Both the position numbers and the translations under genes were made by a program. A stretch of 64,000 nt of DNA from Rhodospirillaceae bacterium (GTDB taxonomy: Bacteria; Pseudomonadota; Alphaproteobacteria; UBA7887). Below are positions 7,227-49,145 of this stretch, in pieces. Location of the stretch: NCBI GenBank assembly GCA_002728255.1, contig PBWV01000042.1, positions 4,602 through 68,601 of the forward strand, given 5' to 3'. A model generated the notes under the pieces. The model was given only the letters and a program-made list of their open reading frames with translations, ran no database searches and was not told the DNA's origin. Every line of letters starts with the position of its first letter. Positions within the stretch are counted from its first letter, which is position 1.

Positions 7227-7422
7227 CTAACAATTTACCGGAGTGTACAAAATAGCTAGTTGTTAGTAAAACTTTGGTATTATTGTAGGTAGGGTGCCAG
7301 AAAAATGCTGCCAGCGAATATTGGTAACAGAATTAGGTGCCAAAATAGCCCCCCCAGACCTCTACGTGATATGTTTCTTTGATTTTTGAGGACGCATGGG
7401 GCTATAACCAGAGGCGTTTGGA

Positions 7423-7512
7423 GGAGGAGTGGCAGAGTGGTTGAATGCACTGGTCTTGAAAACCAGCGTGCCCTTACGGGTACCGGGAGTTCGAATCTCC
7501 CCTCCTCCGCCA
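7423..7512 (+). tRNA. tRNA-Ser (anticodon UGA)
   Basis: Cloverleaf read by hand. Acceptor stem GGAGGAG pairs with CTCCTCC. Anticodon arm is CTGGT-CTTGAAA-ACCAG, i.e. anticodon TGA. There is an 18-nt variable arm (class II), a TTCGAATC T-loop and an encoded CCA. It aligns almost base-for-base with E. coli tRNA-Ser(UGA). Confidence 0.9.
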
Positions 7513-7562
7513 CTACGGCCAAAGGCAATGCCCAGACCAGATAATTTTATTGCGAGAGAAAA

Positions 7563-7817
7563 ATGACTAAATTTTATGAACCAGATCTCGGAAGCGAACC
7601 AGAGAACCCGTTTGCTCGAGACCAGAGCGGAAAGCTTGTACGAAGGAGTTATTGGTTGGATCTAAGCGACCAATCATTAATATTAGTAATGACAAGAGGG
7701 GTTGGAGCGTCTCTGAAGGCGAGCGAGAAAAGAGTACATTTGCTGGATATAGCTAGAGATCATCTCGTGGATGAATGTTGTCAGGAGATATTAGCACCAG
7801 AGAAAGAAGAAGGTTAA
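7563..7817 (+). CDS. hypothetical small protein (84 aa), family not recognised
   Basis: Complete ORF starting 50 nt after the tRNA, preceded by a weak GAGAGA Shine-Dalgarno and followed by an AT-rich hairpin. No recognisable motif, so it may not be expressed. Confidence 0.25.
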   Translation: MTKFYEPDLGSEPENPFARDQSGKLVRRSYWLDLSDQSLILVMTRGVGASLKASEKRVHLLDIARDHLVDECCQEILAPEKEEG

Positions 7818-7820
7818 TAA

Positions 7821-7845
7821 ATTTCTTTAAGAAATTACTTTTAAT
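7821..7845. terminator. AT-rich hairpin with flanking T-run; possible bidirectional terminator between the small ORF and the Rieske gene
   Basis: AATTTCT-tta-AGAAATT is a perfect 7-bp inverted repeat, followed by ACTTTTAATTTTTT. The stem is AT-only, so it is weak. Confidence 0.3.
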
Positions 7846-7909
7846 TTTTTATTATTAAATATTTATATGATTTATAAGATACTTATTCTTAAAGAATATA
7901 TCCCCATGT

Positions 7910-9184
7910 CTACTCTTCATGAACTTCCAATACGTCCATCCCCAGAGCCTCACGAAAAGTGTTATGAAAATGGTGTAGAGCCGGTTCATTCCTTCCAAAA
8001 AGAAGGTGATCCAACAACCCATTCTCAGCGGCCTTTTGAGTGCTCTCCCCCATCATATAATCTTGCTCTGATACAGTGCTCACAAAAACTTCATTCTGGG
8101 AGACCACGCTAGGTAATGCTCCAGATCGCTTCTCCAAGTTATATATATTTTCTGAAGTAATCTGGGGCCTATCATCATCTTCAACTGATTGGGCTTCGAT
8201 CAACTCTTCGCTAAAGTAATGGCTTACCATTGTACATGATTTACCAGGATTATTCTTGACGGGATATATCCTTATAAGGTTGACGGTACCCCGCCCGATT
8301 ACCAACTGAATATTGGGAAAGAGGTAATAAAGCACCACGGCACCATGAGTTAAACGCCACTCACTCCTGGGCTTAGTTCGAACTCTGTCTATCCCACGAT
8401 TAGGAAACACAAACCGGTGATTACGGCCACTTATTTCGTAGTCTAATGCATCACCATAAAATATGCGGCCAACCGTGTCTTTATGGAGTTTATGAAAATG
8501 GTAAGTCTCACCAAAAGTATCGTTGGCCAATTTCCAATTAAGATTCATATTTATTGGAGTTTGGCCTACCCATTTCATCTCAGATAGACCCCAGCCCTCT
8601 AGCTCTACCTTAAAATCCCCTAGCAATTCATTAATATTTAAGGATGCCCGTGGTTTAGGATGAACCCAAAGTAAGCCATGTTGCTCAGCGGCCTCAAGTT
8701 TAATCAATCCTCTGCAGGATTTATCTATATTGCCAAAATGATGTTCTTGGGGAATTCCAATTAATTCACCATTGTTATTATAAGTCCAGTTATGAAAAGG
8801 ACAGGAAAATTTGGAACGCTTTCCTCTTTTTTCTGATTCGACTTCCACTCCTCTGTGTCTGCAAGCATTTAAGAAAGCATTAAAGCGTCCTTGACTATCC
8901 CGGGTCGCCAAAATGGAGACCCCAAATTCATCAACTGTTAGAAATGCCCCCTTCCCAGGAAGATCTCCGCTCAACCCAATTACTTGTGGATATTTCTCAA
9001 AAAATTCTTCCCACTCCTCCTTAGCCAGTTCCTCTGATGTGTATGCCGCAATCGGGTTCCGGAGAACTACGCCAGCATCAACATTTTCTCGTTCATCGAG
9101 TTGCCGCATTAACTCCAGCAGGATATCTTCTTGCTTGGATTGGTGCATATGTAGTCTACTCCAAATGTAATCATGCCACCACAT
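7910..9184 (-). CDS. Rieske [2Fe-2S] non-haem iron oxygenase, alpha subunit (alpha-only type, GbcA/Stc2/CntA-like)
   Basis: 424 aa with Rieske ligands CRHRG...CPFHNW and a mononuclear-iron region (ETYHFHKLH). No beta-subunit gene is adjacent. Confidence 0.85.
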   Translation of the reverse strand: MWWHDYIWSRLHMHQSKQEDILLELMRQLDERENVDAGVVLRNPIAAYTSEELAKEEWEEFFEKYPQVIGLSGDLPGKGAFLTVDEFGVSILATRDSQGRFNAFLNACRHRGVEVESEKRGKRSKFSCPFHNWTYNNNGELIGIPQEHHFGNIDKSCRGLIKLEAAEQHGLLWVHPKPRASLNINELLGDFKVELEGWGLSEMKWVGQTPINMNLNWKLANDTFGETYHFHKLHKDTVGRIFYGDALDYEISGRNHRFVFPNRGIDRVRTKPRSEWRLTHGAVVLYYLFPNIQLVIGRGTVNLIRIYPVKNNPGKSCTMVSHYFSEELIEAQSVEDDDRPQITSENIYNLEKRSGALPSVVSQNEVFVSTVSEQDYMMGESTQKAAENGLLDHLLFGRNEPALHHFHNTFREALGMDVLEVHEE

Positions 9185-9237
9185 ATGGGGTCACTTGCCC
9201 ACTTTTGATCACTGTATTCTAAGGTAGTTACGAAACT

Positions 9238-10338
9238 ATGCCACAAATAAAAACAATATCGTCAGATCACTTTCAAATACCCCTTCCAGTAACGCTGACT
9301 GATGCCACTCATGGAGAAATGAGCGAATTTGACATTGTGACCGCACGCATACGAGACCAAGAAGGCCATGAAGGGCTAGGTTACACCTATTGCGGGGATC
9401 GAGGCGCCGCCTCGGCCATCAGAACACTTATTGCCGATGGGATTACTCCCCTGCTTATCGACCAGGATGCCAATAGAATAGAAAGCCTCTGGCAAAAGAT
9501 GTGGTGGGGCCTCCATTATACTGGACGAGGTGGCTCCCTCAGCTTTGCCATGTCTGCTATAGACATCGCACTATGGGATTTAAAAGCAAAAAAGCTAGGC
9601 TCTCCGCTATGGCAATTACTGGGTGGCCACAATGATAAAGTGCAGGCTTATGCCGGGGGTATTGATTTATTTTTTCCACTTGAACAACTACTGGAGCAAA
9701 CCCGCCGAAATCTGGACAATGGTTTCCGTGCCATCAAAATGAAAGTAGGTCGACCAAAACTTAGTGATGATGTATCCCGCATCGCTGCAATGCGAAAAGA
9801 ACTTGGCGATGACTTCCCGCTGATGGTAGATGCTAACATGGGGTGGCGCCCCGATCAGGCTATAACCGCTGCCAAAGCACTTTCTCCATTTAATCTGACT
9901 TGGTTAGAAGAGCCTACTATTCCAGATGATTTTCAGGGTTATGCAAAAATTCAAAAAGAAGGAGGCATACCCATAGCTGCTGGTGAAAATTTTCATACGC
10001 TCTACGAATTTCAACATCTACTAAATACTAACGGAGTTTCTTTTCCAGAGCCGGATGTTGCAAATTGTGGCGGTATATCTATTTGGATGAAAGTAGCTCA
10101 CCTAGCTGAAGCGTATAACCTACCTGTAACCTCTCATGGCGTCCACGACCTGACAGTCCATTTGCTTGCTGCAGTACCCAATAAATCTTTTCTTGAGGTT
10201 CATGGGTTTGGTTTAGACAAATATATCCGCAGGCCATTTAAGGTGACGGAAGGTTTTGCCACCGCGCCCGATCAACCCGGTCATGGGGTCGAATTTGACT
10301 GGGATGCCCTAGAGAGGCATCGATCCCCTTCGTCATAA
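9238..10338 (+). CDS. mandelate racemase / muconate lactonizing enzyme (enolase superfamily) protein
   Basis: 366 aa with the KxK motif (AIKMKVGRP) and the metal-ligand blocks VDANMGW, LEEP and AGENF. Placed divergently to the Rieske oxygenase. Confidence 0.85.
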   Translation: MPQIKTISSDHFQIPLPVTLTDATHGEMSEFDIVTARIRDQEGHEGLGYTYCGDRGAASAIRTLIADGITPLLIDQDANRIESLWQKMWWGLHYTGRGGSLSFAMSAIDIALWDLKAKKLGSPLWQLLGGHNDKVQAYAGGIDLFFPLEQLLEQTRRNLDNGFRAIKMKVGRPKLSDDVSRIAAMRKELGDDFPLMVDANMGWRPDQAITAAKALSPFNLTWLEEPTIPDDFQGYAKIQKEGGIPIAAGENFHTLYEFQHLLNTNGVSFPEPDVANCGGISIWMKVAHLAEAYNLPVTSHGVHDLTVHLLAAVPNKSFLEVHGFGLDKYIRRPFKVTEGFATAPDQPGHGVEFDWDALERHRSPSS

Positions 10339-10577
10339 TTTCTAACCAAGACAAGTTAGCTGTAAATCCCTTGGCGCTCCGGATCAGAAAAGTTGGCTTT
10401 AAGCAGATTTTCCAGAGGCGACAATCGCATACCAATTGGATTCCCATGATGTGTGATTTGAACAACGCCGCTTGCTGTAATATTTCGGTAACTATTTCCC
10501 CGCATAAATCGTCATATTTCATAGGTAATCCAAGCTCTACAAACCATACAAATGGCCCCTCAAAGGTCTATTCCTAA

Positions 10578-12029
10578 ATGCGAGAATTTAAAATGAAAAA
10601 ATTAAGGTTATGTACTTTGGCACTGCTGGCCTCCACGGTAGGTTTAATAACTATCCCCACACCGACAGAGGCACAAGATGTGGAAAGTCGCCTGTTAGAG
10701 CTAGAGCAAGAATTGATGTTAATGAAGACCCAACTAACCTCCCAGGTAAAACAGGCGCAGGAAGCCACTGTAAAAGCCGGCGGGGCTAGCGATAAGTTTC
10801 AGATGAAGGGCCCCACCCCTAAGTGGGAGTCAGCAGATGGTCGTTTTAAAATGGAAATCGATGGCCGTATTCATTACGACTTCGGTTTATTTAGCCAAGA
10901 TGATGACCCTACCGGCAACGTTGAATTCCCTGACCTGAACTCCGGGAGCAACTTCCGCAGAGGAAGAATAGGACTGAAAGGCGTCATAGATAAAGAGTGG
11001 GCTTACAGTATCACTTTTGATCTCGGCGAAAGCTCCGACTCTGGAAATGTGGATACCGACGTGGTTTTTCTGCAATACAAAGGGATGAAACCTCTTACCT
11101 TTACGCTAGGGAAACATAAAGTACCAAACATGATGGACATTCAAACGAGTTCCAATGATATCGCTTTTATAGAACGAAGTCAGGTTGCCAATATCATGAC
11201 TACCTCTATTCTCCGCGGACAGGAAATAGGAGAAAAACGGATTGGTTTTAGTATTGGTGCAGGTGGTTCTAATTACAGCACCAGGTTTGGCCTCTTCTCA
11301 GACAACGAAGACTTCAACGACGGGGACGCAGCTTTAAGTGCGCATGGTCGTATAACCTATGCCCCTGTTGCCACTAAAGACACGGTTATGCATATCGGTA
11401 TATCGGGTTGGCACTTATTTGAACCTCCTCAGGACGAAACCACTTCGGCCACCCAGACCGTCCAGTTGCGCGATCGACCAGAATTTCGGGTAGACGGTGA
11501 TCGTCTGATTGATACAGGGGCTATTGGTGGGAACGTGGATGAAGGCGACATGATCGGTCTAGAACTTGCCGGAAAAGTCGGACCCGCTTGGCTAATGGGG
11601 GAGTATGCCGTTGTTGAATATGACATCAACGGTACAAACGGTGGAACATTCACCGGTAGCCCGCGTTTTCATGGCTACTATATTTCAGGCGGTTACTTCC
11701 TAACCGGAGAAAGCCGAAAATACCAGGCTAAAGGTGGTAAGTGGAAAGGTGTAAAGGTTAAGAATCCATTCACCTCAAAAGGTGGCACCGGAGCATGGGA
11801 AGTTCTTGTCCGGCACTCCACCATGGACTTAAACGCTCCAACCTCCAGTATCGAAGGTGGCGAGGAACAGAACTATACACTCGGTCTACGCTGGTGGGCA
11901 AACGACTGGGTTAATTTTGCCTTCAATTACATCCATGCGGACGTTGACAAACAAACTGCTACCAACAGTGGTGTCGAAGAAGGTCAAGCATTCGATATCT
12001 TTGCCTTCCGTACCGCAGTTAAATGGTAG
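10578..12029 (+). CDS. outer-membrane porin, phosphate-selective porin O/P (OprO/OprP-like) family, with N-terminal coiled coil
   Basis: 483 aa. It has a signal peptide ending TEAQD, a heptad-rich LLELEQELMLMKTQL segment, then alternating amphipathic beta-strands, and ends in the aromatic residue ...AVKW. It shares the YFLTGESR and GAWEV blocks with the downstream paralog. Confidence 0.6.
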   Translation: MREFKMKKLRLCTLALLASTVGLITIPTPTEAQDVESRLLELEQELMLMKTQLTSQVKQAQEATVKAGGASDKFQMKGPTPKWESADGRFKMEIDGRIHYDFGLFSQDDDPTGNVEFPDLNSGSNFRRGRIGLKGVIDKEWAYSITFDLGESSDSGNVDTDVVFLQYKGMKPLTFTLGKHKVPNMMDIQTSSNDIAFIERSQVANIMTTSILRGQEIGEKRIGFSIGAGGSNYSTRFGLFSDNEDFNDGDAALSAHGRITYAPVATKDTVMHIGISGWHLFEPPQDETTSATQTVQLRDRPEFRVDGDRLIDTGAIGGNVDEGDMIGLELAGKVGPAWLMGEYAVVEYDINGTNGGTFTGSPRFHGYYISGGYFLTGESRKYQAKGGKWKGVKVKNPFTSKGGTGAWEVLVRHSTMDLNAPTSSIEGGEEQNYTLGLRWWANDWVNFAFNYIHADVDKQTATNSGVEEGQAFDIFAFRTAVKW

Positions 12030-12245
12030 GTCAACCAGCCTCCTCTTACTAAAAGGCCTACAAATGAGCCTCACGGCACACAGTCTGGCGTGGGGCTTTC
12101 TTACACTACAATGCCAGTCGGGCACCTTGTAGATATGCGGCAATAGCATGGCCCCTATGCCATTTGGTGATTGCATAAAGAGCGCTAATCCCTCTATGTT
12201 GCCGTCTTCCAAACTTTCCGTAATACCTAAAGAAGTAGAACTCCT

Positions 12246-13772
12246 ATGATAAAGTACTTTCTCCGCTATACCGTCGCCGGCCTTATATGTGGTCTGACCC
12301 TGCCCATTATTAATAGTAATGCTCAAGATACTGGAACATTAGAAAAGCTTCAGGAGCAAGACTTACTTATCCAGCGTCAAAACCAACGCATTGAAAGGCT
12401 TGAAGAAGCATTGGATAAATTACTGCAAGATCCTCAAGCGGCGACCCCATACAGTGAAGCAGAGAGCAAGGAGAAGGCAGAATCCATCCCCCCCGCAGAT
12501 AAAGGCGAGGCAAAAGGAGCAGACCCGTTTGCTGGCAAAAGAGCCCCAAAAAAGGGGTACGACCCAGAAAAATCCTTTTTTGGGCCGCTCCCCAGATTCA
12601 CCTCTTCTTCAGGATATTCCTTTGGTTTTAGTGGTTTTTTCCAATACGATGGCGCCCTCTACGGCCAAGACAGTGGTGCCAACGTCCCAGATTATAGAGA
12701 CGGCACCCGACTAAAGAATACTGCTATTTTTCTTACTGGAGTATTTCCCAAAGATTGGATTTGGGGACTTTATTACAATCTAGCAGACTCTGGAGACGCC
12801 CCCATTAACGGCCTTTATGGCACTTTCGCCATTTATCGAGGATTCGCCCCCTGGTGGATTATGCTTGGCAACCAAAGAACCGGCGTGGGGCTTGACCCAT
12901 CTGCCTTTTCCTCCTCAAGGCTTTTCATGGAAGAGGCCATGCCTCTTGGCAGCTTTGCATTTGCTCCCGGAGGAACGGCAATAGGAGTTTCAACCTTATA
13001 TAGGGCGGACGGCAAATATTTGCGCGTAGGTCTACTGACTGATGCAGCAAAGGAAGCGAATTCCACCAACGATGGCGCTACTAGTGATGAGCCGTACGGA
13101 ATTCATGCCCGAGCTGCTTGGTCACCCATAGCGGAGCGAACCAAAGCCCTCCACGTTGGCGCCTCTGGTTACTGGCGTACGGGCGGAAGCACAAAATTTA
13201 ACTCGGACCCTGAAGTTACTGTTGATTCAAATAAGCTCATTGATACAGGAAATATAGAGCGTGTAGCGAGCTACTACTTTACCGGTCTTGAGGCGGCCTG
13301 GGTTGAAGGCCCACTTTCTCTTCAAGGCGAATATGGCCTCGTAAATGTACTACGGAAAAACAATAGATCGGGCCAAACAGCACTCCAAGATCTTAATTTC
13401 GAAGGATATTATGCACAAGCTAGCTATTTCCTTACCGGTGAGTCCCGAAATTACTACCCTCGCTTTGCGGGGTTTTGGAGAGTGAATCCAAAGAACGACT
13501 TTGACCTGTCAGAGGGGAAATGGGGAGCTTGGGAGGTGGCCGCTCGATACAGTTATTTGGATTTGGACGATGGCGCATCAAATATTCCTGGTGGCGGAAT
13601 ACGGGGAGGCGTTGCTAACAACTACACTTTCGCTCTCAATTGGCATCTTAACCCATTTGTTAAAGTACTATTGAACTACGTACAGAGTGACGTGGAGAAA
13701 ATCTCAACAACCGGTGCACCCGCCGGCGACACCCTCCATATTGTGGGCTCTCGACTGCAGCTTGAATGGTAA
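12246..13772 (+). CDS. outer-membrane porin, OprO/OprP-like family (paralog of 10578..12029)
   Basis: 508 aa. It has a signal peptide, a coiled coil (IERLEEALDKLLQ), the shared motifs YFLTGESRNYY, GAWEVAARYSYLDL and NYTFALNW, and ends in LQLEW. Confidence 0.6.
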   Translation: MIKYFLRYTVAGLICGLTLPIINSNAQDTGTLEKLQEQDLLIQRQNQRIERLEEALDKLLQDPQAATPYSEAESKEKAESIPPADKGEAKGADPFAGKRAPKKGYDPEKSFFGPLPRFTSSSGYSFGFSGFFQYDGALYGQDSGANVPDYRDGTRLKNTAIFLTGVFPKDWIWGLYYNLADSGDAPINGLYGTFAIYRGFAPWWIMLGNQRTGVGLDPSAFSSSRLFMEEAMPLGSFAFAPGGTAIGVSTLYRADGKYLRVGLLTDAAKEANSTNDGATSDEPYGIHARAAWSPIAERTKALHVGASGYWRTGGSTKFNSDPEVTVDSNKLIDTGNIERVASYYFTGLEAAWVEGPLSLQGEYGLVNVLRKNNRSGQTALQDLNFEGYYAQASYFLTGESRNYYPRFAGFWRVNPKNDFDLSEGKWGAWEVAARYSYLDLDDGASNIPGGGIRGGVANNYTFALNWHLNPFVKVLLNYVQSDVEKISTTGAPAGDTLHIVGSRLQLEW

Positions 13773-13929
13773 TAGCGCTCAAGGGAAGGTCAGACCTCTC
13801 TAATTCCGAGGCTAATCCGAGTAGGATTTGAGAGTACTCTTACAACCTATTGACCAGGAAAGGAAATAGTTCTATAATTTTTTCCTATTTTGATTATTCA
13901 TTTAAACTATTAACATACGGCAACCAACC

Positions 13930-16488
13930 ATGCAAAAGTCATTCTTCTCGCTGACCCTCCTTTCCTCCCTCCTTTCACTGCTCTTCATGGGCAGTCTGCG
14001 TGCGCAGGACCCCTCTATTCAGCTCCCTGACATAGAGATAATCGGAACCACCCCGCTACCAGGAAGTGGTGTCCCAGTTGAAGATGTGCCGTCTAAAGTT
14101 CAAACCTTTGATAGTGAAGAATTGCAAAATTCCTACTCCCTGGATCTCTCTTCAATGTTGGAGAGCAAAGCTGGAGGAGTTTCAACTGTAGAAGTGCAAA
14201 ATAATCCATTCCAGAAAGGCATAAACTACCGCGGCTATACCTCAGCCCCTTTATTGGGAGAGCCACAAGGTCTAGCAGTCTACCAAAATGGTGTCCGGGT
14301 CAACGAGCCATTTGGGGATGTAATGCAGTGGGACTTATTGCCGGAACCTGCCTTGGCAAGAGCTGATATTCTGTCCAGCAATCCAGTGTTTGGACTTAAT
14401 GCCTTGGGCGGGGCAATTGCCCTTCAACTAAAGAATGGATTCGACTTTCAAGGAATCCGCGTCAACACCCACACAGGCTACTTCGGTCGTCATGGGACTG
14501 ATATGGAGTTTGGTTTTAGTGGCGAAACACTAGCGATATACGCTGCACTGGATATTCAACAGGATGCGGGTTGGAGAAATAGATCCCGGTCAGACATACA
14601 AAAATCATATCTGAATCTCGGCTACCGCGGAGATGACCTCAACCTAACCTGGGATTTCATCCAGGCAAATAATAATCTAAATGGGAATGGTCTTGCTCCA
14701 ACCGAATTGCTCGAATCTAATCGACGGGCAGTATTTACGTGGCCAGATAACACCGCAAACGATTTACTCTCGACAGGTTTAAGCGGGAATTATTTCATAA
14801 ACGACATCATATCGGTCCAAGCCAATGCCTACTACCGCCGAATGTTCCGTAAAACCTTAAATGCTGATGAAGTTGAAGCAGAAGCTTGTAGCTTAGACTC
14901 AAATGAAACAGACATAGATGCCGACACTGATGCCGGTAACCAAGCAATCGCCGCGCTTTCACAGACCTTGGCCCGGAGGATAGATACCAACAATGGTATT
15001 ACCAGTGCCGGTGGTGGGGTAAATTTTCTCTGCGAGGAAGAAGAGGAAGACGAGGAAATCGAACTACTGGTTGATAGTAATGGGCTCCCCATCACTGAAT
15101 TTTCTGGCAAGTATGCAGCCGCTAATACCAGTTCAACAATGACCAAAGGTTGGGGATTCGGCGTTCAAACCGAGATAACTGAATCAATTATGGACTTAGA
15201 TAACAAGTTCATCATAGGAGGTAGCGCTGATTATGGTCTAACAAGATTTCACCAAGAATCTTATCTGACAGGCATGAGTGCAGATAGAACTTTACTAGAC
15301 GTAGAGGGCGATTTCCCTTTTGTGAATTTTGCTACGTTGGAAATAGAATTTGATAGCAATTCCGTTGATGAGGTAGCACTTGAAGTTGGGGAAGCTGCTC
15401 CCACCAAAATGCAGGCTCATAACCGATACTATGGGGTTTATTCCACAGACACTATCTACCTTAATGATGACCTTGCTGTGACATTAGGGGGTAGGTTTAA
15501 TATCGCGCGCATTACATTAGATGACGAATTCCAGACCGATATAACAAATGCTACAATAACTCGTAAAGGCGACCTAAATGGCTCTCATAGATTCGCGAGA
15601 TTCAACCCTAGCGCCGGAGCTACCTATGATTTCAGTGATTGGAATATCACTGGTTATGTTAACTATGCCGAATCCAATCGAGCCCCCTCTCCTGTAGAAT
15701 TATCATGTGCGGACCCCGCTGTACCCTGTAGAGTGCCAAATGCTTTTGCAGCAGACCCCCCTCTGGAACAAGTGGTATCACAAGGATGGGAGTTTGGTCT
15801 CCACGGAAACATAGACCGCGCTGCACTAAAGGGCCTGACTCCACTAGACTGGAGTATCACGGGTTTTGCTTTTAACAATAATGACGATATTTATTTTGTA
15901 AGCTCTGGGGTAGGACTTGGCTCAGGCTATTTCAAAAACGTGGGTGGAACCAGGCGTGTTGGCGGGGATATCACACTCTCCGGAAGACTAGGTCTTGTAG
16001 AGTTCGATACTAACTATAGTTTCATAGAGGCCACTTTTGAAAACGCATTTAGCGTTGCATCGGAAAGCCACCCTAATCGGGTTAACAAACAAGTCGCTGT
16101 TGAAGCTGGCGATGAAATACCGGGGATACCCCAGCATACTCTTAAATTGGGATTGAATTATGAACCCAAGAAGGATTGGCTCCTAGGCTTAGACATGATT
16201 TCCCGTTCAGGAATGTATCTAAGAGGAGACGAGGGAAACTTTCTACCCCGAACCTCTGGCCATACCATATTTAATATGCAGACTAGCTACCAAGTGACAG
16301 AATGGGTACAACTATATGGCCTAATTGATAATATATTTGATACACAATACGAAACATTTGGCCAGCTAGGAGAAACTGGGACTGCCGTCCTAATTAGTGA
16401 GTTACCAGAAGGTGTTAAAGAACCACGATTTTTATCACCTGGCCAGCCATTTGGGGCCTTTGTGGGCTTACGTATCAGTCTTAACTAA
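13930..16488 (+). CDS. TonB-dependent outer-membrane receptor
   Basis: 852 aa with a signal peptide, an N-terminal plug region (VEVQNNPFQKGINYRGY...GLAVYQNGVRVNE...ALGGAI) and a long barrel. Odd features are an acidic run CEEEEEDEEIELL and a non-aromatic C-terminus (...LRISLN). Confidence 0.8.
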   Translation: MQKSFFSLTLLSSLLSLLFMGSLRAQDPSIQLPDIEIIGTTPLPGSGVPVEDVPSKVQTFDSEELQNSYSLDLSSMLESKAGGVSTVEVQNNPFQKGINYRGYTSAPLLGEPQGLAVYQNGVRVNEPFGDVMQWDLLPEPALARADILSSNPVFGLNALGGAIALQLKNGFDFQGIRVNTHTGYFGRHGTDMEFGFSGETLAIYAALDIQQDAGWRNRSRSDIQKSYLNLGYRGDDLNLTWDFIQANNNLNGNGLAPTELLESNRRAVFTWPDNTANDLLSTGLSGNYFINDIISVQANAYYRRMFRKTLNADEVEAEACSLDSNETDIDADTDAGNQAIAALSQTLARRIDTNNGITSAGGGVNFLCEEEEEDEEIELLVDSNGLPITEFSGKYAAANTSSTMTKGWGFGVQTEITESIMDLDNKFIIGGSADYGLTRFHQESYLTGMSADRTLLDVEGDFPFVNFATLEIEFDSNSVDEVALEVGEAAPTKMQAHNRYYGVYSTDTIYLNDDLAVTLGGRFNIARITLDDEFQTDITNATITRKGDLNGSHRFARFNPSAGATYDFSDWNITGYVNYAESNRAPSPVELSCADPAVPCRVPNAFAADPPLEQVVSQGWEFGLHGNIDRAALKGLTPLDWSITGFAFNNNDDIYFVSSGVGLGSGYFKNVGGTRRVGGDITLSGRLGLVEFDTNYSFIEATFENAFSVASESHPNRVNKQVAVEAGDEIPGIPQHTLKLGLNYEPKKDWLLGLDMISRSGMYLRGDEGNFLPRTSGHTIFNMQTSYQVTEWVQLYGLIDNIFDTQYETFGQLGETGTAVLISELPEGVKEPRFLSPGQPFGAFVGLRISLN

Positions 16489-16508
16489 GGTCTTACACAG
16501 GTAACTTT

Positions 16509-17174
16509 ATGAACCAAAATGAGTATCTTTTTTCAACCGGGATCGCTCTGATCGACAAGGGTGGCCCGGTGATGCTCATACTGTTGGGCTTTTCCGTAAT
16601 TTCCCTAACCATAATTTTGGCCAAAATTTACCAATTTTGGGCGATAAAGCTGGGCAAAACTAAATTTATTGATAATGCAATTTTGCAACTCAAAGAAAAT
16701 TCTCCTCCTCTGGCATTGGGGGAATTACAAGGCAACCGCCATCCGGCCGCAACCGTTCTAACATCAGTGATCGAAAGCTCAACTAATTCTGCTATGTCTC
16801 AAAGTGACATCGAGACAGAAGTTGGCCGTGTTGGCACCCGGGAGATTAAAAATCTTGAACGTTATCTTAGAGGCTTGGAAGTCATTGCAAATCTTAGCCC
16901 CTTACTTGGACTTCTTGGGACGGTCCTAGGCATGATTAAAGCATTTGCCCGTTTAGAAACTGCGGGAAGCAATGTTGACCCAGCCATATTAGCTGGAGGT
17001 ATTTGGGAAGCACTCCTAACAACGGCCTTCGGTTTAAGTGTTGCAATCCCTACCCTAGCTGCCTTCTACCTTCTCGAGGGAAAGGTAGAAAATTGCCGCT
17101 CTTTACTGGAAGATTCGGCGACCCGCGCTCTGACTATCTTGAATAGGCAAACCCAAAAAAAAACTACGACTTAA
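16509..17174 (+). CDS. exbB: MotA/TolQ/ExbB proton-channel family protein
   Basis: 221 aa with three TM segments and the LSPLLGLLGTVLGMIKAF signature. Confidence 0.85.
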   Translation: MNQNEYLFSTGIALIDKGGPVMLILLGFSVISLTIILAKIYQFWAIKLGKTKFIDNAILQLKENSPPLALGELQGNRHPAATVLTSVIESSTNSAMSQSDIETEVGRVGTREIKNLERYLRGLEVIANLSPLLGLLGTVLGMIKAFARLETAGSNVDPAILAGGIWEALLTTAFGLSVAIPTLAAFYLLEGKVENCRSLLEDSATRALTILNRQTQKKTTT

Positions 17175-17183
17175 GAGCAGCAA

Positions 17184-17576
17184 ATGGATTTTTCCGGGCG
17201 TAGCAAATCTAAAGTTGAGTTAAACGTCGCACCTCTTATCGATATAGTATTCTTGCTGTTGGTTTTCTTTATGTTAGCGAGCACGTTTATTCGACCTGAA
17301 TCAATAAATTTGGCCATTCAGGCCCCAAGCAGCGTGGGTGGGCAATCTGAACAGCATATCCTCGTTGATATAGGTGCAAATGGCGCAATCCGATTGAACG
17401 GATTAGTCTTAACAATACAAGATTTAAAGCAGGAATTACTGGCTCGCAGTAGCCTACCGCAAAATAATCGAACTATAACACTTCGAACACATGATGATGT
17501 TTCCGTTCAGTTTCTAGTTAAAGTGATGGATGAAATAAACGAGGCAGGTTACAGCGATATTGCAATAAGCAACTGA
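17184..17576 (+). CDS. exbD: biopolymer transporter ExbD/TolR
   Basis: 130 aa with the N-terminal ELNVAPLIDIVFLLLVFFM motif. Confidence 0.85.
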   Translation: MDFSGRSKSKVELNVAPLIDIVFLLLVFFMLASTFIRPESINLAIQAPSSVGGQSEQHILVDIGANGAIRLNGLVLTIQDLKQELLARSSLPQNNRTITLRTHDDVSVQFLVKVMDEINEAGYSDIAISN

Positions 17577-17600
17577 TAACACACAAAAAATTAAAATATT

Positions 17601-18005
17601 ATGAAATTTAGTGCGCCAAGAAGAGTGAGCCATGGAATCAATATGGTTCCATTAATTAATATTGTTTTTCTTTTACTAATATTTTTCATGCTTAGCACAA
17701 CCTTGGTTGCTCCTGAAAAAATTCCTATCGAGGCCCCTCAATCAAAAAACAGCCAAGAACAACAAAAACAACAATTTGCCCTAACGATACTTGAAACTGG
17801 AGATATTTTTTACAAAGGAAGTAAAACCTCACTTATTGAAATTTTTGAGATCCTTCAAACAGGTAGCCAACAAACCGGTGAGATTGAACTCCTTATCAAA
17901 GCTGACTCCAACGCGCTCACGAAAGTGGTGCTTTCGGTGCTTGAGGCAGCACGTGCTGCTGGCGTTGGAAAAGTCTCATTAGCAACACAGCGTCCTTCAC
18001 CCTAA
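17601..18005 (+). CDS. exbD: biopolymer transporter ExbD/TolR (second copy)
   Basis: 134 aa with INMVPLINIVFLLLIFFM. Tandem to the first ExbD. Confidence 0.8.
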   Translation: MKFSAPRRVSHGINMVPLINIVFLLLIFFMLSTTLVAPEKIPIEAPQSKNSQEQQKQQFALTILETGDIFYKGSKTSLIEIFEILQTGSQQTGEIELLIKADSNALTKVVLSVLEAARAAGVGKVSLATQRPSP

Positions 18006-19009
18006 TGAACTCGGACGTCACCCCACCACTTTTATGGCCACTTGCCATCTCGATCCTAATCCATACCTCGGTCCTTCCCTTCGCCATTTTCGAGAATAAC
18101 TTGCCTAATAACAAAAGGAATGAGCAACTCGTAAATATTACATTAGAACCAATGGAGCAGAGGAATGACTCAAACCCACCTATAGAACCAATCTCTCGAA
18201 CAAAGGCATCTGAACCGCCAGTCCGTAATGAAGCAATCCCAAATGATATTGTTCTCCCAAAAATAGAGAAACTTTCAGATCTTTCTAATATCGACGACCA
18301 AAGATTCACACTTCCGGATAGCAAACCTATAGTTCATAATTCACCCCAACTCGTAGAAACACCAGCTGAAGCTGAGACTAGTATCGACTTAAGTACGCCG
18401 GATCCACTGCATGGGCCTTTACATCAACAATCCCTAGAACCTGTTTCACCGGTTGAACAAGAACTGATTCAAATCACCCCACCCCCGCAACAACCATCTA
18501 AGACTTCGTTACCAAAAACAATCTACAGAGACAAAAGAGAGACCGAAGCAATAGACACGGTCCAAACCCTCCCGATTATCCAGAACATGCCCCCCGAGGT
18601 TAACAAACCTTTGTCTCAACAATCGGTACCAGTAGAAGAAATAGTAGAATTAGTAGAAGAGGAAACGGATCTAGATCCCTCAGTTAACCTTAACAACAGC
18701 ATTGCAAAAGAATATGCAACGATCGTACACAATACCCTTAATAAACGAGTAAAACGTAAATACCCACGGAAAGCGCGTCAAAATTGTATTGAAGGAACGA
18801 TTTCAGTCCAAATTCAAATAAGCCCAGCTGGCGAGCAACTAGCTTATACGATCCTAAATGCAGATGAAGCCCCTTCAATTCTGAGGGAGGCAACAGAGAA
18901 AATACTCAATCAACGCAGAGAATTCTCCAGATTTAATGAAGGTTTATCGGACCAACCCATGACATTCCAAGTAAACTTGGTTTATCGGCTCCCCCAATGT
19001 GCCAGGTAG
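18005..19009 (+). CDS. tonB: energy transducer TonB
   Basis: 334 aa with an N-terminal TM anchor, a Pro/Glu-rich spacer and a C-terminal TonB domain (YPRKARQNCIEGTISVQIQISPAGE). Start overlaps the exbD stop. Confidence 0.75.
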   Translation: MNSDVTPPLLWPLAISILIHTSVLPFAIFENNLPNNKRNEQLVNITLEPMEQRNDSNPPIEPISRTKASEPPVRNEAIPNDIVLPKIEKLSDLSNIDDQRFTLPDSKPIVHNSPQLVETPAEAETSIDLSTPDPLHGPLHQQSLEPVSPVEQELIQITPPPQQPSKTSLPKTIYRDKRETEAIDTVQTLPIIQNMPPEVNKPLSQQSVPVEEIVELVEEETDLDPSVNLNNSIAKEYATIVHNTLNKRVKRKYPRKARQNCIEGTISVQIQISPAGEQLAYTILNADEAPSILREATEKILNQRREFSRFNEGLSDQPMTFQVNLVYRLPQCAR

Positions 19010-19014
19010 ATGGC

Positions 19015-19773
19015 CTAATTTCTCTCAAGATCATTCAACATTTCTTTAACTTTTTCTTGGACAATTTTTTGGTAAGCATCTGTGGCAGGCAGTTCAGCAG
19101 CTATATTCAGATGCCGCAAAGCCTGTCCTATATTCCTATCATCCAACTTTAAAAGTCCCACGGCATACTGAAAATGTACATTGTTATCATTAGGAGCAAT
19201 TTCGAGGGCCTTGGCGTATGCATCCAAAGACTCACCTTCGTCAGCTCCATACAATAACCACGCCATGAACCCAGCAAAAATAATTTCTGAGTGCCACGCA
19301 CCAAGACTTAAATAAGCTTGATAATTTCTTGGATCTAATTCGATTGCTTTATCGATCGCCGTGCGAATTTGTTCTGCGTACCCCTCGCTTAAAGCAGTCA
19401 TTGTCCCTAAAGTTTGAGCATAACGACCTAAGGTATGTGCTAGTTGTAGGTAGGCCTCACTGGAACCAGGATCCAATTCCACGGCCGTTTTGGCATATTC
19501 GATCGCCTTAACAAATAAAGGTTGCATCTCTGAATCTTCTGCAATCTCATAGCCGTACACTGCCAATGACGCAGCAGCAAAAGCAAACCCTTCTGCATCA
19601 CCAATGCCTGCCGCCACCACGGATGCTTTCTTAAAATTTCCGGCGGCCGCTAATTCCCGCGCCGCTTCCATAGATTGGGAGGCCATGGCTTTGTTCAGAG
19701 GAAGAAATACTAGAATTAAGAAAAAATATACAATAGCTATTCTAAATAGGTTTTGATCTATTGTTCTTTCCAT
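19015..19773 (-). CDS. tetratricopeptide-repeat protein with N-terminal signal/anchor
   Basis: 252 aa with a hydrophobic N-terminus and repeated A/L/Y-rich 34-residue helical pairs (AYLQLAHTLGRYA..., AYLSLGAWH...). Convergent with tonB. Confidence 0.55.
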   Translation of the reverse strand: MERTIDQNLFRIAIVYFFLILVFLPLNKAMASQSMEAARELAAAGNFKKASVVAAGIGDAEGFAFAAASLAVYGYEIAEDSEMQPLFVKAIEYAKTAVELDPGSSEAYLQLAHTLGRYAQTLGTMTALSEGYAEQIRTAIDKAIELDPRNYQAYLSLGAWHSEIIFAGFMAWLLYGADEGESLDAYAKALEIAPNDNNVHFQYAVGLLKLDDRNIGQALRHLNIAAELPATDAYQKIVQEKVKEMLNDLERN

Positions 19774-19987
19774 TTTACCACTGAACCAAGATTTACAATC
19801 GATATAGAAACTCAGAGCTATAAAAACCTAAAGTCACCTCTCTTTGACCAGCCTAGCCCCGGTGGTGCAGAATAACCCGAAACTCCAACTCATCCCATGA
19901 TTTTCTGATACCTTCGCATTAGTATCCCCTTCGATCTGGGCAAATTCAAAGCCCGTTTTACTTGAGAATACCTCGGACCCTATCCTT

Positions 19988-20848
19988 CTAAGCGGGTTTC
20001 ACGATAGATAATATAGAACGAAACAAGTCGCTGTTTTTGTCCTTAAAACCATTCAATATACTAAAATGATGGACATCAGGAACCTCCCTCCACTGACCTA
20101 CTAGGCCGTTCCCAACCCACAAATCAAAATAAGTTTTGCTTTGCCTAATAAATTCCGAAGTTTCATCTCCTCCAACTACCACAGCTAACTCTGGCCCTGT
20201 TTTAGGCAAATGATAGATAGGGCTCAAAGCCCGTATATCACCCAAAGCCAGTTGCAATTTTGGTTGCAAGAAACTGTACGGTAATGGTGCCAGATCAAAA
20301 ATACCGCTTATTGCACATCCACCTTTGATTAAGTCTTCGCTGATCCCGTAATGTTTAGCCCATTTTGTAGCTAATGCCATAGCAACCAGGTGCCCTCCAG
20401 CAGAATGCCCCGAAATGCTAAGCCAATCAAGATTGCACCCGTGTGTAGACTGGTTGGAAACCAACCAATGGATTGCTCCTCTCGTTTGTCGAACAATTTC
20501 CGATAATTTTACTGATGGACAAAGCGAGTAGTTCAGTATAGCAACGCTAACACCACTCTCAACCAACAGTGGTGCTATAAATGAAAAATCCCCGGCGACA
20601 CCTTTTCTCCAATATCCTCCGTGAATGAATATATGGAGAGGCGCATCCCGATTCGTGGCTGGAAATAAATCAATATATTCATCTTTAGTAGGCCCATATC
20701 GCATTCCCAGCCTACCATCAAGCTCCCTTCGAACCCGAGCACTTTCAGTTGCCCATTCTTTCATAATCGATGGAGCGTCCAATGCAGTGAGCAAAGGATT
20801 ATACTCCGCGTCGATTTCTTCTTGAGTACTCAAATCGCGATACAACAT
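19988..20848 (-). CDS. alpha/beta hydrolase (esterase/lipase or arylformamidase-like)
   Basis: 286 aa with the oxyanion HGGYW motif and the nucleophile elbow GHSAGG. Confidence 0.75.
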   Translation of the reverse strand: MLYRDLSTQEEIDAEYNPLLTALDAPSIMKEWATESARVRRELDGRLGMRYGPTKDEYIDLFPATNRDAPLHIFIHGGYWRKGVAGDFSFIAPLLVESGVSVAILNYSLCPSVKLSEIVRQTRGAIHWLVSNQSTHGCNLDWLSISGHSAGGHLVAMALATKWAKHYGISEDLIKGGCAISGIFDLAPLPYSFLQPKLQLALGDIRALSPIYHLPKTGPELAVVVGGDETSEFIRQSKTYFDLWVGNGLVGQWREVPDVHHFSILNGFKDKNSDLFRSILSIVKPA

Positions 20849-29665: not shown

Positions 29666-30655
29666 ATGCATTTCTCAACCCAGGATTTGGAAGAAGCGGC
29701 TTCCTTAGTACATAAAGTTGTACCGCCCACCCCGCAACACTCTTGGCCACTCCTAGCACACCACACCGGTTGTGAAGTTTGGATTAAACATGAAAACCAT
29801 ACACCGACAGGTGCCTTCAAAGTCCGCGGTGGTGTAATATACATGGAGTCTCTTAAAACTGAAAATCCATCCTGCACAGGAGTAATTGCAGCTACTACAG
29901 GAAATCATGGACAGTCTATTGCAGTTGCTGCAACTAACGCAGGATTAAACAGCGTAATTGTTGTGCCACGTAATAATAGTTTAGCGAAGAATCGCGCTAT
30001 GACTGCCCAAGGGGCCAGACTGATAGTACACGGAGAGGACTTTCAAGAAGCATTTGAACATGCTGAAGAACTTTCAGAGAAATTATCATTGCATATGGTT
30101 CCATCCTTCCACTTAAATCTCATACAGGGAGTGGCATCTTATGGTCTCGAACTATTTCGTTCCATCAACGATCTCCACACAATTTATGTGCCAATTGGAC
30201 TTGGATCAGGAATTTGCGGAGTGATTGCCGCCAGAGAGGCCCTGGGGATCACCACCAGAATAGTAGGCGTTCAAGCAGAAGGAGCTCCCTCCTACGCGTT
30301 GTCCTTTGAGGCAAGAAGACCAGTTTCTACTAATGGCGCTAATACTTTTGCTGCTGGCCTAGCAACTCGTATTCCAATTCCTGAAGCAGTTGCTTTTATT
30401 AACCGCTATGCGGAACGAATCATTACTGTCAACGACACCCAAATATTGGAAGCTCAAGCACTCCTGATGCGAGATACCCATAACATAGCAGAACCCGCCG
30501 GAGCCGCTGCATACGCCGCTCTAATCAAAGAAAAACATAAAATGCTAAATAAAAAAGTCGGCGTTATCTTATCAGGCGGTAACGCTGAACCAGATAACTT
30601 ACTAAGAATACTTTCCTCAGCTGTATTTGAAGAAAATGGAGATTATAGTCAGTGA
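29666..30655 (+). CDS. PLP-dependent threonine/serine dehydratase family enzyme (fold-type II)
   Basis: Start moved to MHFSTQDL (ATG at 29666). PLP-lysine motif TGAFKVRGG and a glycine-rich loop GLGSGICG. 329 aa. Confidence 0.8.
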   Translation: MHFSTQDLEEAASLVHKVVPPTPQHSWPLLAHHTGCEVWIKHENHTPTGAFKVRGGVIYMESLKTENPSCTGVIAATTGNHGQSIAVAATNAGLNSVIVVPRNNSLAKNRAMTAQGARLIVHGEDFQEAFEHAEELSEKLSLHMVPSFHLNLIQGVASYGLELFRSINDLHTIYVPIGLGSGICGVIAAREALGITTRIVGVQAEGAPSYALSFEARRPVSTNGANTFAAGLATRIPIPEAVAFINRYAERIITVNDTQILEAQALLMRDTHNIAEPAGAAAYAALIKEKHKMLNKKVGVILSGGNAEPDNLLRILSSAVFEENGDYSQ

Positions 30656-30696
30656 ATATTTTAAGGTATGTAATAGCTCTCTTCAGGACTCATAAT

Positions 30697-31650
30697 ATGA
30701 ATTATAAATTTCTTAAAGTTTTTCTGGTTCTCACTATATTCTTCTTAGGCAGTAATGAATCGAAATCCGAACGCCTAACCTTTATGACTGGCCCTGCTGG
30801 AGGGACCTGGTATCCATTGGGAGGGGCTGTGAAGCAGCTTCTTGAGCAGGAAATTCCTGACTTGGAGATCACTGTACGTCCTGGAGCAGGCCTTATAAAT
30901 ATTAAAGGAATTTCAAAGAATAAAGCAGAGCTTGCCTGGGGAAACGTAATATCCACGGTGGACGCTCTTAGTGGCCGCCCTCCCTTCAACACCCCAGTCG
31001 AGAATCTTTGCAACCTAGCCGCATTTTACTATCAATACGCTCAAATTCCTGTGACAGACCCAGAGATATCCAGCATTGCAGACTTACGAGGAAAATCCAT
31101 TGGCACCCTTCCGAGAGGGAATACCACGGAAGTAGCAGCGCGCAGCATTCTTAGTCTTTACGACATCTTATACGAGAATCTCAAAAAAATTAATTTTGTT
31201 TCTATTACGGATCAAGTCAACATGATGAAGGATGGTCAGATTGATGCTGCCATCCTTATAACATCAGTTCCGGCTGCTGGTATTATAGATCTAACATCGT
31301 CCCGTAAAATTTCGCTCCTACCGATTAGTGATGAGAAATTCGGGATTTTAGAACGTAAGAACCCCGGATGGAGCCGGGCTGTTATCCCCGCCTCTACCTA
31401 TCCTGGACAAAATACAGATATACCCACAGCGCGCTTCCAAATGCACCTGATAGCAAGTTGTTCTGAGATATCCCAAATGACTGCCTACAAAATAGTTGAG
31501 GCTCTCGCCCGCAGAGGCAGCGAACTTAGCGCAGTCACCGCTATGCTAGAGGGATATGATATTAATATGATGTCAAAATATATTGGAGTACCCTTTCATC
31601 CTGGTGCAAAGTTATTTTATATGGAAAGTGGGATAACCTACTCCCACTGA
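30697..31650 (+). CDS. TAXI-family TRAP transporter solute-binding protein
   Basis: Start moved to MNYKFLKVFLVL (signal peptide). The GPAGGTWYPLGGA motif is typical of TAXI binding proteins. It is followed by the fused permease. Confidence 0.8.
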   Translation: MNYKFLKVFLVLTIFFLGSNESKSERLTFMTGPAGGTWYPLGGAVKQLLEQEIPDLEITVRPGAGLINIKGISKNKAELAWGNVISTVDALSGRPPFNTPVENLCNLAAFYYQYAQIPVTDPEISSIADLRGKSIGTLPRGNTTEVAARSILSLYDILYENLKKINFVSITDQVNMMKDGQIDAAILITSVPAAGIIDLTSSRKISLLPISDEKFGILERKNPGWSRAVIPASTYPGQNTDIPTARFQMHLIASCSEISQMTAYKIVEALARRGSELSAVTAMLEGYDINMMSKYIGVPFHPGAKLFYMESGITYSH

Positions 31651-31666
31651 TGCACCTTCCACAAAA

Positions 31667-44171: not shown

Positions 44172-45230
44172 ATGGATACTCCTGAAATAATGGAAATTAG
44201 GCCTCTAGCCAACTTTAGGGAAATATTTTTTCTAGTACTGGCCCTGTTTTTACTACTTATTCCTAGATGGACATGTGCTCATTCACCAACACTCCAAGAA
44301 CCCAAGAAATTCTCTACAGACCACTTCCTACCCTCCAATCAAATTACGGAAAAATTTTTGTGCCTGGAAGAGACAACTTTGAGCTCTCAATGTCTCTTAT
44401 CTCTAGCTAAAAGGTCTGCAAGAGAGATCATAAACGTTGATAGCCAAAATTTTGCGAATCTTTTCATTGCAATATCGCAATCTGATCTGGATTCGCCAAA
44501 TTCAGTTAACCAAACCATTGCAAAAATTACAAATCCGCCTCTTCGCGGTATAGCTCTTACCTATCTGGCACAATTACATCTACGCCAAGAAAATAGACGT
44601 GGCAGCATATATATTATGACTAAAGCCCAAAATTTTTCAAACACAAGCCCACAAGCATATGTGAATGCTTGGCTAAATATTTTGATCGGCGACCTTCTTG
44701 CAATCTTAGGAAGAAGCACCGATTCCCAAAACTTTGTTGAACAGGCGCTACAGACTATCCCGTTAATAAAAGAGCATAATACCCGCTCCGAACTCTATGC
44801 TTTGGCCGCACAAGCAAGATTAAAAAATGGGCAGAGAACTGAAGCTAAGGAAATAATTAGAACGGCAATGATGGAAGCAAAGAAAGTACGCGACCCTTAC
44901 TTGAAATCATTAGCGTTTAGTTTTAATGCTCTTGCATACCATAGACTTGGGTTACTCCCTTATTCCATTTCCACCCAAGCGATAGCAGAAGAATACGCCC
45001 AAAGTTCATCTCTCCCCTCGAAGGTGGTGGCTCTAGCTTTCCTCTCTTCTATCCAAGCCAAGACAGAACAAGTTGAATCTGCTTCGAGATCCCTAAAGAA
45101 AACAATAGAAATATTATCAGTAATCCGGAGTCCCTACCACCGAGCCCTATCCTTTGCTTTCCTCGCGCAGACCATTTACTTTGCGGAAAAGGAACTCCAT
45201 GGTACAAAAAGGCAAGTTCCTACTCACTAA
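44172..45230 (+). CDS. hypothetical exported/membrane-anchored protein, helical-repeat-like
   Basis: 352 aa with an N-terminal hydrophobic segment (FFLVLALFLLLIP) followed by alpha-helical repeat-like sequence. No catalytic motif recognised. Confidence 0.4.
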   Translation: MDTPEIMEIRPLANFREIFFLVLALFLLLIPRWTCAHSPTLQEPKKFSTDHFLPSNQITEKFLCLEETTLSSQCLLSLAKRSAREIINVDSQNFANLFIAISQSDLDSPNSVNQTIAKITNPPLRGIALTYLAQLHLRQENRRGSIYIMTKAQNFSNTSPQAYVNAWLNILIGDLLAILGRSTDSQNFVEQALQTIPLIKEHNTRSELYALAAQARLKNGQRTEAKEIIRTAMMEAKKVRDPYLKSLAFSFNALAYHRLGLLPYSISTQAIAEEYAQSSSLPSKVVALAFLSSIQAKTEQVESASRSLKKTIEILSVIRSPYHRALSFAFLAQTIYFAEKELHGTKRQVPTH

Positions 45231-46988: not shown

Positions 46989-46993
46989 ACTAC

Positions 46994-48993: not shown

Positions 48994-49145
48994 AACCTGG
49001 GACCAATACTATTTAAGTTCGCAATAATCAGTTATTAAGAGTTAAACTTTGGACAAGATTTCATACCAACGATATAATTTCACCTGTGCACTTCAATATA
49101 ATCCAATCTCATATTCACCAAACCAGATAACTATTAAAATATCAA

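Follow-up and report, generated by a model that had tools for sequence, protein, structure and literature searches.

In marine bacteria, TonB-dependent transporters (TBDTs) rank with the most abundant proteins of the outer membrane, and most of them have no known substrate. The Ton motor has a known ExbB5–ExbD2 stoichiometry, and current models of 5:2 motors build on a pair of identical chains (ExbD, TolR or MotB), in both of which an Asp is essential. The Ton operon of Xanthomonas campestris has the order tonB-exbB-exbD1-exbD2. The tonB1-exbB1-exbD1-exbD2 operon of Sphingobium sp. SYK-6 could not be disrupted and serves many TBDTs, and both of its ExbDs keep Asp25 (PMC8599685). Vibrio TonB2-type systems (TtpB/TtpC-ExbB-ExbD-TonB2-TtpD) are reported to be Ton operons with extra conserved accessory genes (PMC6957404). 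Here we analyse a 64-kb stretch of DNA from a Rhodospirillaceae bacterium (the window; 64,000 nucleotides of contig PBWV01000042.1, assembly GCA_002728255.1), in which two porin genes, a TBDT gene, exbB, two exbD genes and tonB follow one another on the forward strand between positions 10578 and 19009 and meet a convergent gene for a tetratricopeptide repeat (TPR) protein. The components (TBDT, Ton motor and porins of the OprO/OprP family) are of known kinds; what is new is an Asp/Asn pair of ExbDs with a TPR partner. The explanation that we favour, at slightly better than even confidence, is that of an old uptake neighbourhood in three separately controlled parts, with a general Ton motor.

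The motor genes stand at the 3′ end of the block. Gene positions were taken from open reading frame (ORF) calling and families from Pfam searches: exbB (16509–17174, MotA_ExbB), exbD1 (17184–17576) and exbD2 (17601–18005; both ExbD) and tonB (18005–19009; TonB_C, PF03544, 36.2 bits against a cut-off of 24.6) lie on the forward strand, and the TPR gene (19015–19773; Pfam TPR families) lies on the reverse strand, 5 nt from the end of tonB. The TPR protein begins with a hydrophobic signal or anchor. ExbB retains the segments GLLGTVLGM and WEALLTTAFGL, which align with TolQ/ExbB motifs and which we take to hold the equivalents of Escherichia coli ExbB T148, E176 and T181. ExbD1 is canonical, with Asp20 (APLIDIV) at the position of E. 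coli Asp25 in an alignment to E. coli ExbD (6tyi_Y). ExbD2 has Asn20 (VPLINIV) at this essential position, in alignments to E. coli ExbD (6tyi_Y) and to 7ajq_F. Against NCBIfam models, ExbB and both ExbDs score higher with TolQ/TolR than with ExbB/ExbD, all below cut-off.

The Asp-to-Asn replacement is conserved. We collected the contexts of TBDT homologues by exact-protein look-up, a scan of species genomes and a scan of metagenomes (80 loci returned; designated by L numbers below), and annotated all fetched loci with hidden Markov models (HMMs) built from the proteins of the module. In 14 loci, exbB and one or more exbD genes come after a TBDT at least 39% identical to that of the window (the window, L005, L014, L001, L008–L012, L015, L016, L018, L019 and L031; the module loci). 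The first ExbD has Asp in every case with a readable N terminus, and the second has Asn in all 12 readable cassettes, which come from ten module loci (L001 with both of its cassettes) and from L094 and L095. Wherever both ExbDs can be read, over GC contents from 30% to 71%, the first gene has APLID and the second VPLIN. When 1.84 billion representatives (50% identity) were searched with index-free HMMER, 28 of the best 150 matches had the PLIN Asn, mixed with Asp types; a word-indexed search for ExbD2 homologues gave Asn in 117 of 120, a proportion that we treat as biased by the word index. The Asn type is thus, judged by sequence, a recurrent minority class of ExbD. A limited literature search found no description of a natural ExbD lacking Asp25, nor of the combination of porin, TBDT and ExbD. 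Because the stoichiometry of the motor is known to be ExbB5–ExbD2, we infer a mixed ExbD1–ExbD2 dimer, which would leave one protonatable Asp per motor.

The tonB product begins with a single membrane helix, which a long linker rich in Pro and Glu joins to a divergent TonB_C domain (residues 251–329). It falls just below the cut-off of the NCBIfam tonB_Cterm model (26.6 versus 27.1) and is weakly similar to E. coli TonB in the PDB (E 0.14–0.44). It is also the least conserved protein, with 58% amino-acid identity to its counterpart in L005, compared with 83–96% for its neighbours; its divergence and change in length lie mostly in the linker. Orthologues of the TPR protein match PF21033 (RMD1-3), and their genes lie tail-to-tail with the end of the Ton cassette in L005, L014, L031, L094, L095 and L001, and one gene further away in L008. 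The gene that faces the TPR gene in L001, a high-GC Rhodospirillaceae locus, belongs to a second exbB-exbD(Asp)-exbD(Asn) set (7272–9828) that has no tonB, is divergent from the TBDT and represents a local duplication.

The cassette also occurs away from any transporter. In L094 (a 3.26-Mb contig) and L095 (a 1.8-Mb contig), exbB-exbD-exbD-tonB and the convergent TPR gene stand alone, with no TBDT or porin nearby; in L094 a kinase and regulator pair like that described below for the TBDTs of some relatives lies before the cassette. The preliminary description of the block, made from the letters of the window, had found the doubled ExbD reminiscent of specialised TonB systems, a view that these stand-alone cassettes do not support. 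Because the cassette with its TPR gene also stands alone in other genomes, it looks like the general Ton system typical of the lineage, rather than a private motor of one transporter. HMMs from the module proteins found no further porin, ExbB or ExbD gene elsewhere in the 64-kb window, and a plasmid collection searched with the Ton genes gave no match.

Upstream of the motor genes lie porin1 (10578–12029; Porin_O_P, Pfam E 1e-58), porin2 (12246–13772; Porin_O_P, E 1e-42) and the TBDT gene (13930–16488; Plug and TonB_dep_Rec barrel), all on the forward strand. The seven same-strand genes and the convergent TPR gene agree with the preliminary description in their coordinates and in every family, as does the overlap that it noted between the exbD2 stop and the tonB start, which share one base (TGATG). 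The short gaps that it mentioned are real for the last five genes, from the TBDT gene through tonB (20, 9, 24 and −1 nt), but not for the porins: spacers of 216 nt between porin1 and porin2 and of 157 nt between porin2 and the TBDT gene carry regulatory signals.

The association of these genes is conserved across relatives. In the module loci a second exbD and tonB come next wherever the contig continues, and a Porin_O_P gene adjoins the TBDT gene in 10 of the 12 loci with enough upstream DNA to judge. The co-occurrence comparison called for in the preliminary description thus shows the linkage of porin, TBDT and Ton genes to be conserved. Three arrangements are seen: porin-porin-TBDT (the window, L005 and L014); porin, histidine kinase, NtrC-type regulator and TBDT (L008, L009 and L010); and a porin divergent from the TBDT (L011, L012, L015 and L018). 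Among loci with less than 38% identity to the window TBDT, none has a porin or Ton cassette adjoining the TBDT; the exbB-exbD pair of L064, which lies on the opposite strand, is unrelated. The module recurs on unrelated contigs that range from 30% to 66% GC, and the block is more than a chance juxtaposition.

Conserved linkage could nevertheless be inherited gene order without functional meaning, left by envelope genes in a stable region of the chromosome. Genes around the module do recur: yjeF, malonyl-CoA decarboxylase and enoyl-CoA hydratase in L008–L010, and yjeF in L011 and L012. Genes of a TAXI-type TRAP transporter (NMT1_3 and a long DctM fusion) lie near the module at 30652–33526 in the window and at about 17800–20800 in the 30%-GC relatives L011 and L012, which points to a wider conserved gene order. 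Moreover, the module loci do not consistently share an attached binding protein or inner-membrane transporter. Against this, the porin stays beside the TBDT where the flanks differ wholly (the window compared with L008 and L011) or where its orientation is inverted, and the set is still intact where a two-component system has been inserted between porin and TBDT. We consider a linkage without functional meaning unlikely.

The flanks of the block in the window (GC about 43%) are ordinary chromosomal genes (metG, holB, tmk, dacC, mltB, tRNA-Ser, mfd and recG), and the genes 3′ of tonB are the TPR gene, a hydrolase gene and dsbA. An MR_MLE dehydratase and a Rieske oxygenase, both upstream, and the downstream hydrolase were weighed as members of the module and rejected, being common only to the near relatives L005–L007. 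Further away, at 45220–50369, a dTDP-sugar cluster (RmlA, RmlD, RmlB-like) with a GT2 glycosyltransferase and a C-methyltransferase is probably concerned with surface polysaccharide and is unrelated to the block.

The spacers divide the block into three predicted transcription units: porin1; porin2; and TBDT-exbB-exbD1-exbD2-tonB. This division follows from a terminator after porin1, a conserved region upstream of porin2 and a promoter belonging to the TBDT gene itself. Just after porin1, an intrinsic-terminator-like hairpin at 12066–12098 (forward strand) is followed by UUUCUU. Its folding energy in the window is −19 kcal/mol (z −3.9), that of its L005 counterpart −33 kcal/mol (z −6.2); no shuffled sequence folded as well, and the stem is retained in L005 and L014 despite differing sequence. 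The porin1–porin2 spacer (12030–12245) is 83% identical between the window and L005, compared with 48–67% for the other spacers and 75% for the coding DNA of the TBDT. Within it, the inverted repeat ATGCCAT-N6-ATTGCAT (12157–12176), a candidate operator in the region upstream of porin2, is invariant across the window, L005 and L014. As the porin2 leader gave no RNA-structure signal (z −0.46) and Rfam gave no match over 10–20 kb at E up to 1, the conserved spacer seems likely to contain a protein-binding site.

Upstream of the TBDT gene by 52 nt, a sigma-70-like promoter, TTGACC-17-TATAAT (13850–13878, forward strand), matches 11 of 12 consensus positions and is the best in a 12.5-kb scan; TTGAC-17-TATnnT is retained in L005 and L014. 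Directly 3′ of the −10 element in the window, L005 and L014 is a T-run followed by CCTAT (window 13879–13889). The same feature occurs in the TBDT upstream regions of L011, L012 and L015, with looser variants in L008, L018, L001 and L009, in lineages of 30% to 66% GC, and could serve as an operator or as a −10-like element of alphaproteobacterial type. The preliminary description had treated the block as a single unit; these signals instead predict separate, probably differently regulated transcripts, an outcome that the description itself had named as counting against it.

Regulatory boxes, for which the preliminary description had suggested a search, were found in part. A Pho box consists of two 7-bp direct repeats with an 11-bp period and occupies the −35 position. 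A Pho-box-like direct repeat, CTGTAAT-ATTT-CGGTAAC, lies on the forward strand at 10475–10492, 86 nt upstream of porin1, with a conserved CATAAA about 10 nt 3′ of it. It is the sole match in the 64-kb window to the pattern CTGTMAYWWWWCTGTMAY at up to 2 mismatches, where 0.33 is expected. The site before porin1 is conserved in L005, and in L005, L008 and L009 the best or sole CTGTMAYWWWWCTGTMAY matches likewise precede the porin1-type gene and are on its coding strand. The site is suggestive of Pho control of porin1. In a scan limited to the classical Fur box, the Irr iron control element (ICE) and the RirA box, no match lay in any of the three spacers.

Other relatives show a different form of control at the TBDT. 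In L008, L009, L010 and L031, a pair of genes for an NtrC-family kinase and regulator lies directly upstream of the TBDT gene, and TGGYTGATATCARCCA palindromes precede it in these four loci (within about 220 nt) and in L001 (about 9730–9790). Where it could be located, the GAFTGA loop of the regulator is altered, to GAFTSA in L008 and to GAYTGA in L010, hinting at sigma-54-independent activation. Matches to the sigma-54 pattern TGGCAC-N5-TTGC are at chance level in the window, with none in the spacers and none in the window at up to 1 mismatch; a scan of the relatives gave a single good site, which precedes the kinase gene of L008. In the window lineage, the TGGYTGATATCARCCA palindromes and the kinase and regulator pair are both missing.

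The two porins are 32% identical to each other (BLASTP). Orthologues of porin1 (38–42% identity) adjoin the TBDT in L008–L010 and orthologues of porin2 (39–46%) do so in L010, L011 and L012, so that L010 carries both types; the porins of L015 and L018 occupy the same divergent position as the porin2-type genes of L011 and L012. Because each type has its own orthologues beside the TBDT in distant lineages, porin1 and porin2 are, from these comparisons, ancient paralogues, both tied to this neighbourhood. In PDB searches the whole barrel of each aligned, porin1 with OprO (E 3e-22) and OprP (E 2.5e-20) and porin2 with OprO (E 3e-20). Porin1 has a signal peptide, and both porins have after the signal peptide a coiled-coil extension with no counterpart in the aligned OprO.

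The filter residues of OprO were mapped onto an alignment of 12 porin orthologues, at about 20% identity to OprO. We take the binding site and arginine ladder of OprP/OprO to consist of R34, R59, R60, D94, K121, S124, S125, R133 and R218–226. By this map the porin1 type retains R34, R59, R60, D94, S124, S125, E132, R133 and one ladder arginine, and has an extra R62 and K114; it has I or E at K121, its arginine ladder is partial and most of the periplasmic lysine cluster is missing. In the porin2 type, R34, S124 and R133 are replaced by hydrophobic or acidic residues and D94 by Y or R. Both had been described beforehand as anion-type porins. This description suits porin1, with its OprO-like arginine filter, but not the porin2 type, which is without R34, D94, S124 and R133. 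Plausibly, then, porin1 alone of the two is a candidate phosphate-like anion channel, and porin2 would have a different, rebuilt constriction. The Mn2+ channel MnoP was considered as a member of Porin_O_P and dropped, as its paper gives no family for it.

The transporter itself is a TBDT by Pfam, scoring above cut-off for both Plug (37 bits) and the TonB_dep_Rec barrel (112 bits). Its sequence is 100% identical to that of a protein from a marine 'Rhodospirillaceae bacterium' metagenome-assembled genome. Subfamily profiles, proposed beforehand as a way of classifying it, did not place it: no NCBIfam TBDT subfamily (siderophore, haem/transferrin, B12 or PqqU) reached its cut-off, the best scores being 61, 53.5, 53 and 24 bits against cut-offs of 223, 324, 1200 and 600. 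A single-sequence search of the PDB gave no match. A profile of 22 homologues has PqqU/YncD as its best PDB match (E 1e-25), over the C-terminal half only. An AlphaFold2 model (mean predicted local distance difference test score, pLDDT, 77) is a plugged β-barrel that matches solved TBDTs at probability 1.0, and its best Foldseek matches are PqqU, Fiu, YncD and FhuA, at 13–15% identity. After the signal peptide, the 22 homologues share a conserved LPDIEVIGxTP motif; the LPDIEVIG part may be read as the TonB box, in a part of the model that is of low confidence. Two cysteine pairs are invariant or nearly so among the homologues. An acidic, low-confidence insertion at residues 323–364 (14896–15021), followed by a CEEEEEDEE run at 368–376, is flanked by the nearly invariant C320 and C368 and varies between relatives in both length and sequence; it is probably a disulfide-closed surface loop.

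These features suggest that the TBDT belongs to a clade without a characterised member. The substrate cannot be called from the sequence, as the preliminary description had said, because the profile and fold searches return only generic TBDTs at 12–16% identity. As a rough division, an organic solute of some other kind has a little less than an even chance, a phosphorus compound is possible with clearly lower probability, and a metal or metal chelate comes slightly behind that. In a more distant branch of the family, the TBDT homologue of Magnetospirillum magnetotacticum MS-1 (L013, JXSL01000023.1; 36% identical) lies in a pyrroloquinoline quinone (PQQ)-dehydrogenase cluster that encodes, beside the PQQ-dependent dehydrogenase, a cytochrome c, an aldehyde dehydrogenase and an SBP_bac_3 protein. 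PqqU, the best solved relative of the family, is an importer of PQQ, and this branch may take up PQQ or a cofactor used by such enzymes.

We propose that the region is an old, vertically inherited outer-membrane uptake neighbourhood of a clade of Alphaproteobacteria, seen here in a marine Rhodospirillaceae-like genome. TBDT-exbB-exbD1-exbD2-tonB would form one operon, read from the sigma-70-like promoter. The TBDT would bind a scarce or bulky solute, and TonB, powered by the ExbB/ExbD proton channel, would pull on its plug, thereby admitting the solute. The cassette would probably be the general Ton motor of the cell, with the TBDT as its closest client; inside the ExbB pentamer, the ExbD1–ExbD2 mixed dimer would provide a single protonatable Asp per motor. 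Porin1 would be an OprO/OprP-like anion channel with its own promoter and terminator, probably used in phosphate starvation, and porin2 its ancient paralogue, whose constriction has been rebuilt and which has a conserved control region of its own. A fuller version, in which the Asp/Asn pair is an obligate mixed dimer with one protonatable carboxylate, the TPR protein is a subunit or assembly factor, and the TBDT and porins are ancestral clients for one nutrient, possibly phosphorus, is held only tentatively.

Several observations count against this explanation. The CTGTMAYWWWWCTGTMAY pattern was partly chosen and relaxed after the site had been seen, and at the same threshold at least one match occurs in 30% of shuffled windows; L010 has no match to the Pho pattern at up to 3 mismatches; and the strict E. 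coli Pho-box consensus is matched with 4 mismatches, which is at chance level. For these reasons the site is not proof of Pho control. Neither porin2 nor the TBDT gene has a Pho-like site before it. No strong hairpin follows porin2 (z −0.3), and read-through into the TBDT gene is possible. Two module loci, L001 and L019, have a TBDT-Ton unit with no porin within about 10 kb. Finally, ExbD2 might instead enter inactive or regulatory complexes, or form homodimers.

Some of these points bear also on a second alternative, that of a dedicated uptake system in which both porins, the TBDT and a private, specialised Ton motor are co-expressed and act on one substrate. The adjacency of porin, TBDT and Ton genes persists over deep divergence through changes in order and orientation, as such a system would have it; in L011, L012, L015 and L018, the porin2-type gene and the TBDT gene diverge from one short spacer; and porin2 and the TBDT gene have no strong terminator between them. 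However, porin1 ends in a terminator, the promoter regions are separate, the Pho-like site stands before porin1 only and the filters of the two porins differ. The cassettes of L094 and L095 without TBDT or porin, and the porin-less units of L001 and L019, fit such a system no better, and we judge it improbable. That the Asn-ExbD cassette powers another envelope process, with the barrel as its partner (Tol-like maintenance, or secretion as in Myxococcus, where a TBDT-dependent secretion system, Oar, has adjacent exbB and exbD genes; PMC11658791), is very improbable, for although the higher TolQ/TolR scores, the constant presence of the TPR partner and the Myxococcus precedent favour it, the third protein has TonB_C and not TolA domain III, no TolB or Pal domain is found among the annotated neighbours of the window cassette, and the plug of the barrel is normal and its N-terminal motif can be read as a TonB box.

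The TBDT clade defined here travels with its own motor genes and with OprO/OprP-like channels, which makes it a concrete target for work on phosphate and metal limitation in oligotrophic Alphaproteobacteria. The conserved Asp/Asn pair, which spans 30% to 71% GC and occurs in 28 or more representative clusters, would test whether a single proton site suffices and could show whether asymmetry is built into some motors. If the mixed dimer is real, it is nature's own test of the number of proton sites required by a 5:2 motor; if ExbD2 has no activity or only a regulatory role, the Ton locus here is of the ordinary kind.

Comparison with known systems places each part of the block. The solved relatives of the porins are OprP and OprO of Pseudomonas aeruginosa (PDB 2o4v and 4rjw), to which both are full-length homologues (PF07396; E 1e-16 to 1e-22). 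Porin1 keeps seven of their filter residues and part of the arginine ladder, and a Pho-box-like site precedes its gene. The window porins differ in being about 20% identical and in having the N-terminal coiled-coil extension; porin1 is without K121 and most of the lysines, and porin2 without most of the filter residues. No pst or pho genes lie next to either porin in the window. The best solved relative of the TBDT is PqqU/YncD (PDB 9c4o and 6v81; profile E 1e-25, Foldseek E 2e-33, TM-scores 0.65 and 0.82). Identity to it is about 15%, however, and the score of 53 bits is far from the NCBIfam PqqU cut-off of 1200; the window TBDT is also about 150 residues longer and has the acidic loop at 323–364.

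For the cassette, the Vibrio TonB2 systems differ from the window in having one ExbD instead of two, and in the window the TBDT gene lies directly upstream of exbB; no large MotA/ExbB protein like TtpC is found in the window. The operon of X. campestris, likened here by gene order, has two exbD genes as the window does, but begins with tonB. That of Sphingobium SYK-6, also alphaproteobacterial, likewise has two exbD genes; it differs in that tonB comes first and both ExbDs have Asp25, and no TPR partner is reported for it in PMC8599685. The E. coli Ton motor (PDB 6tyi and 9ddo) is matched in the equivalents of ExbB T148, E176 and T181, in the Asp25 of ExbD1 and in the helix-linker-TonB_C plan of TonB; the window cassette departs from it in its two ExbD genes, the second with Asn, in its convergent TPR gene and in its divergent TonB_C.

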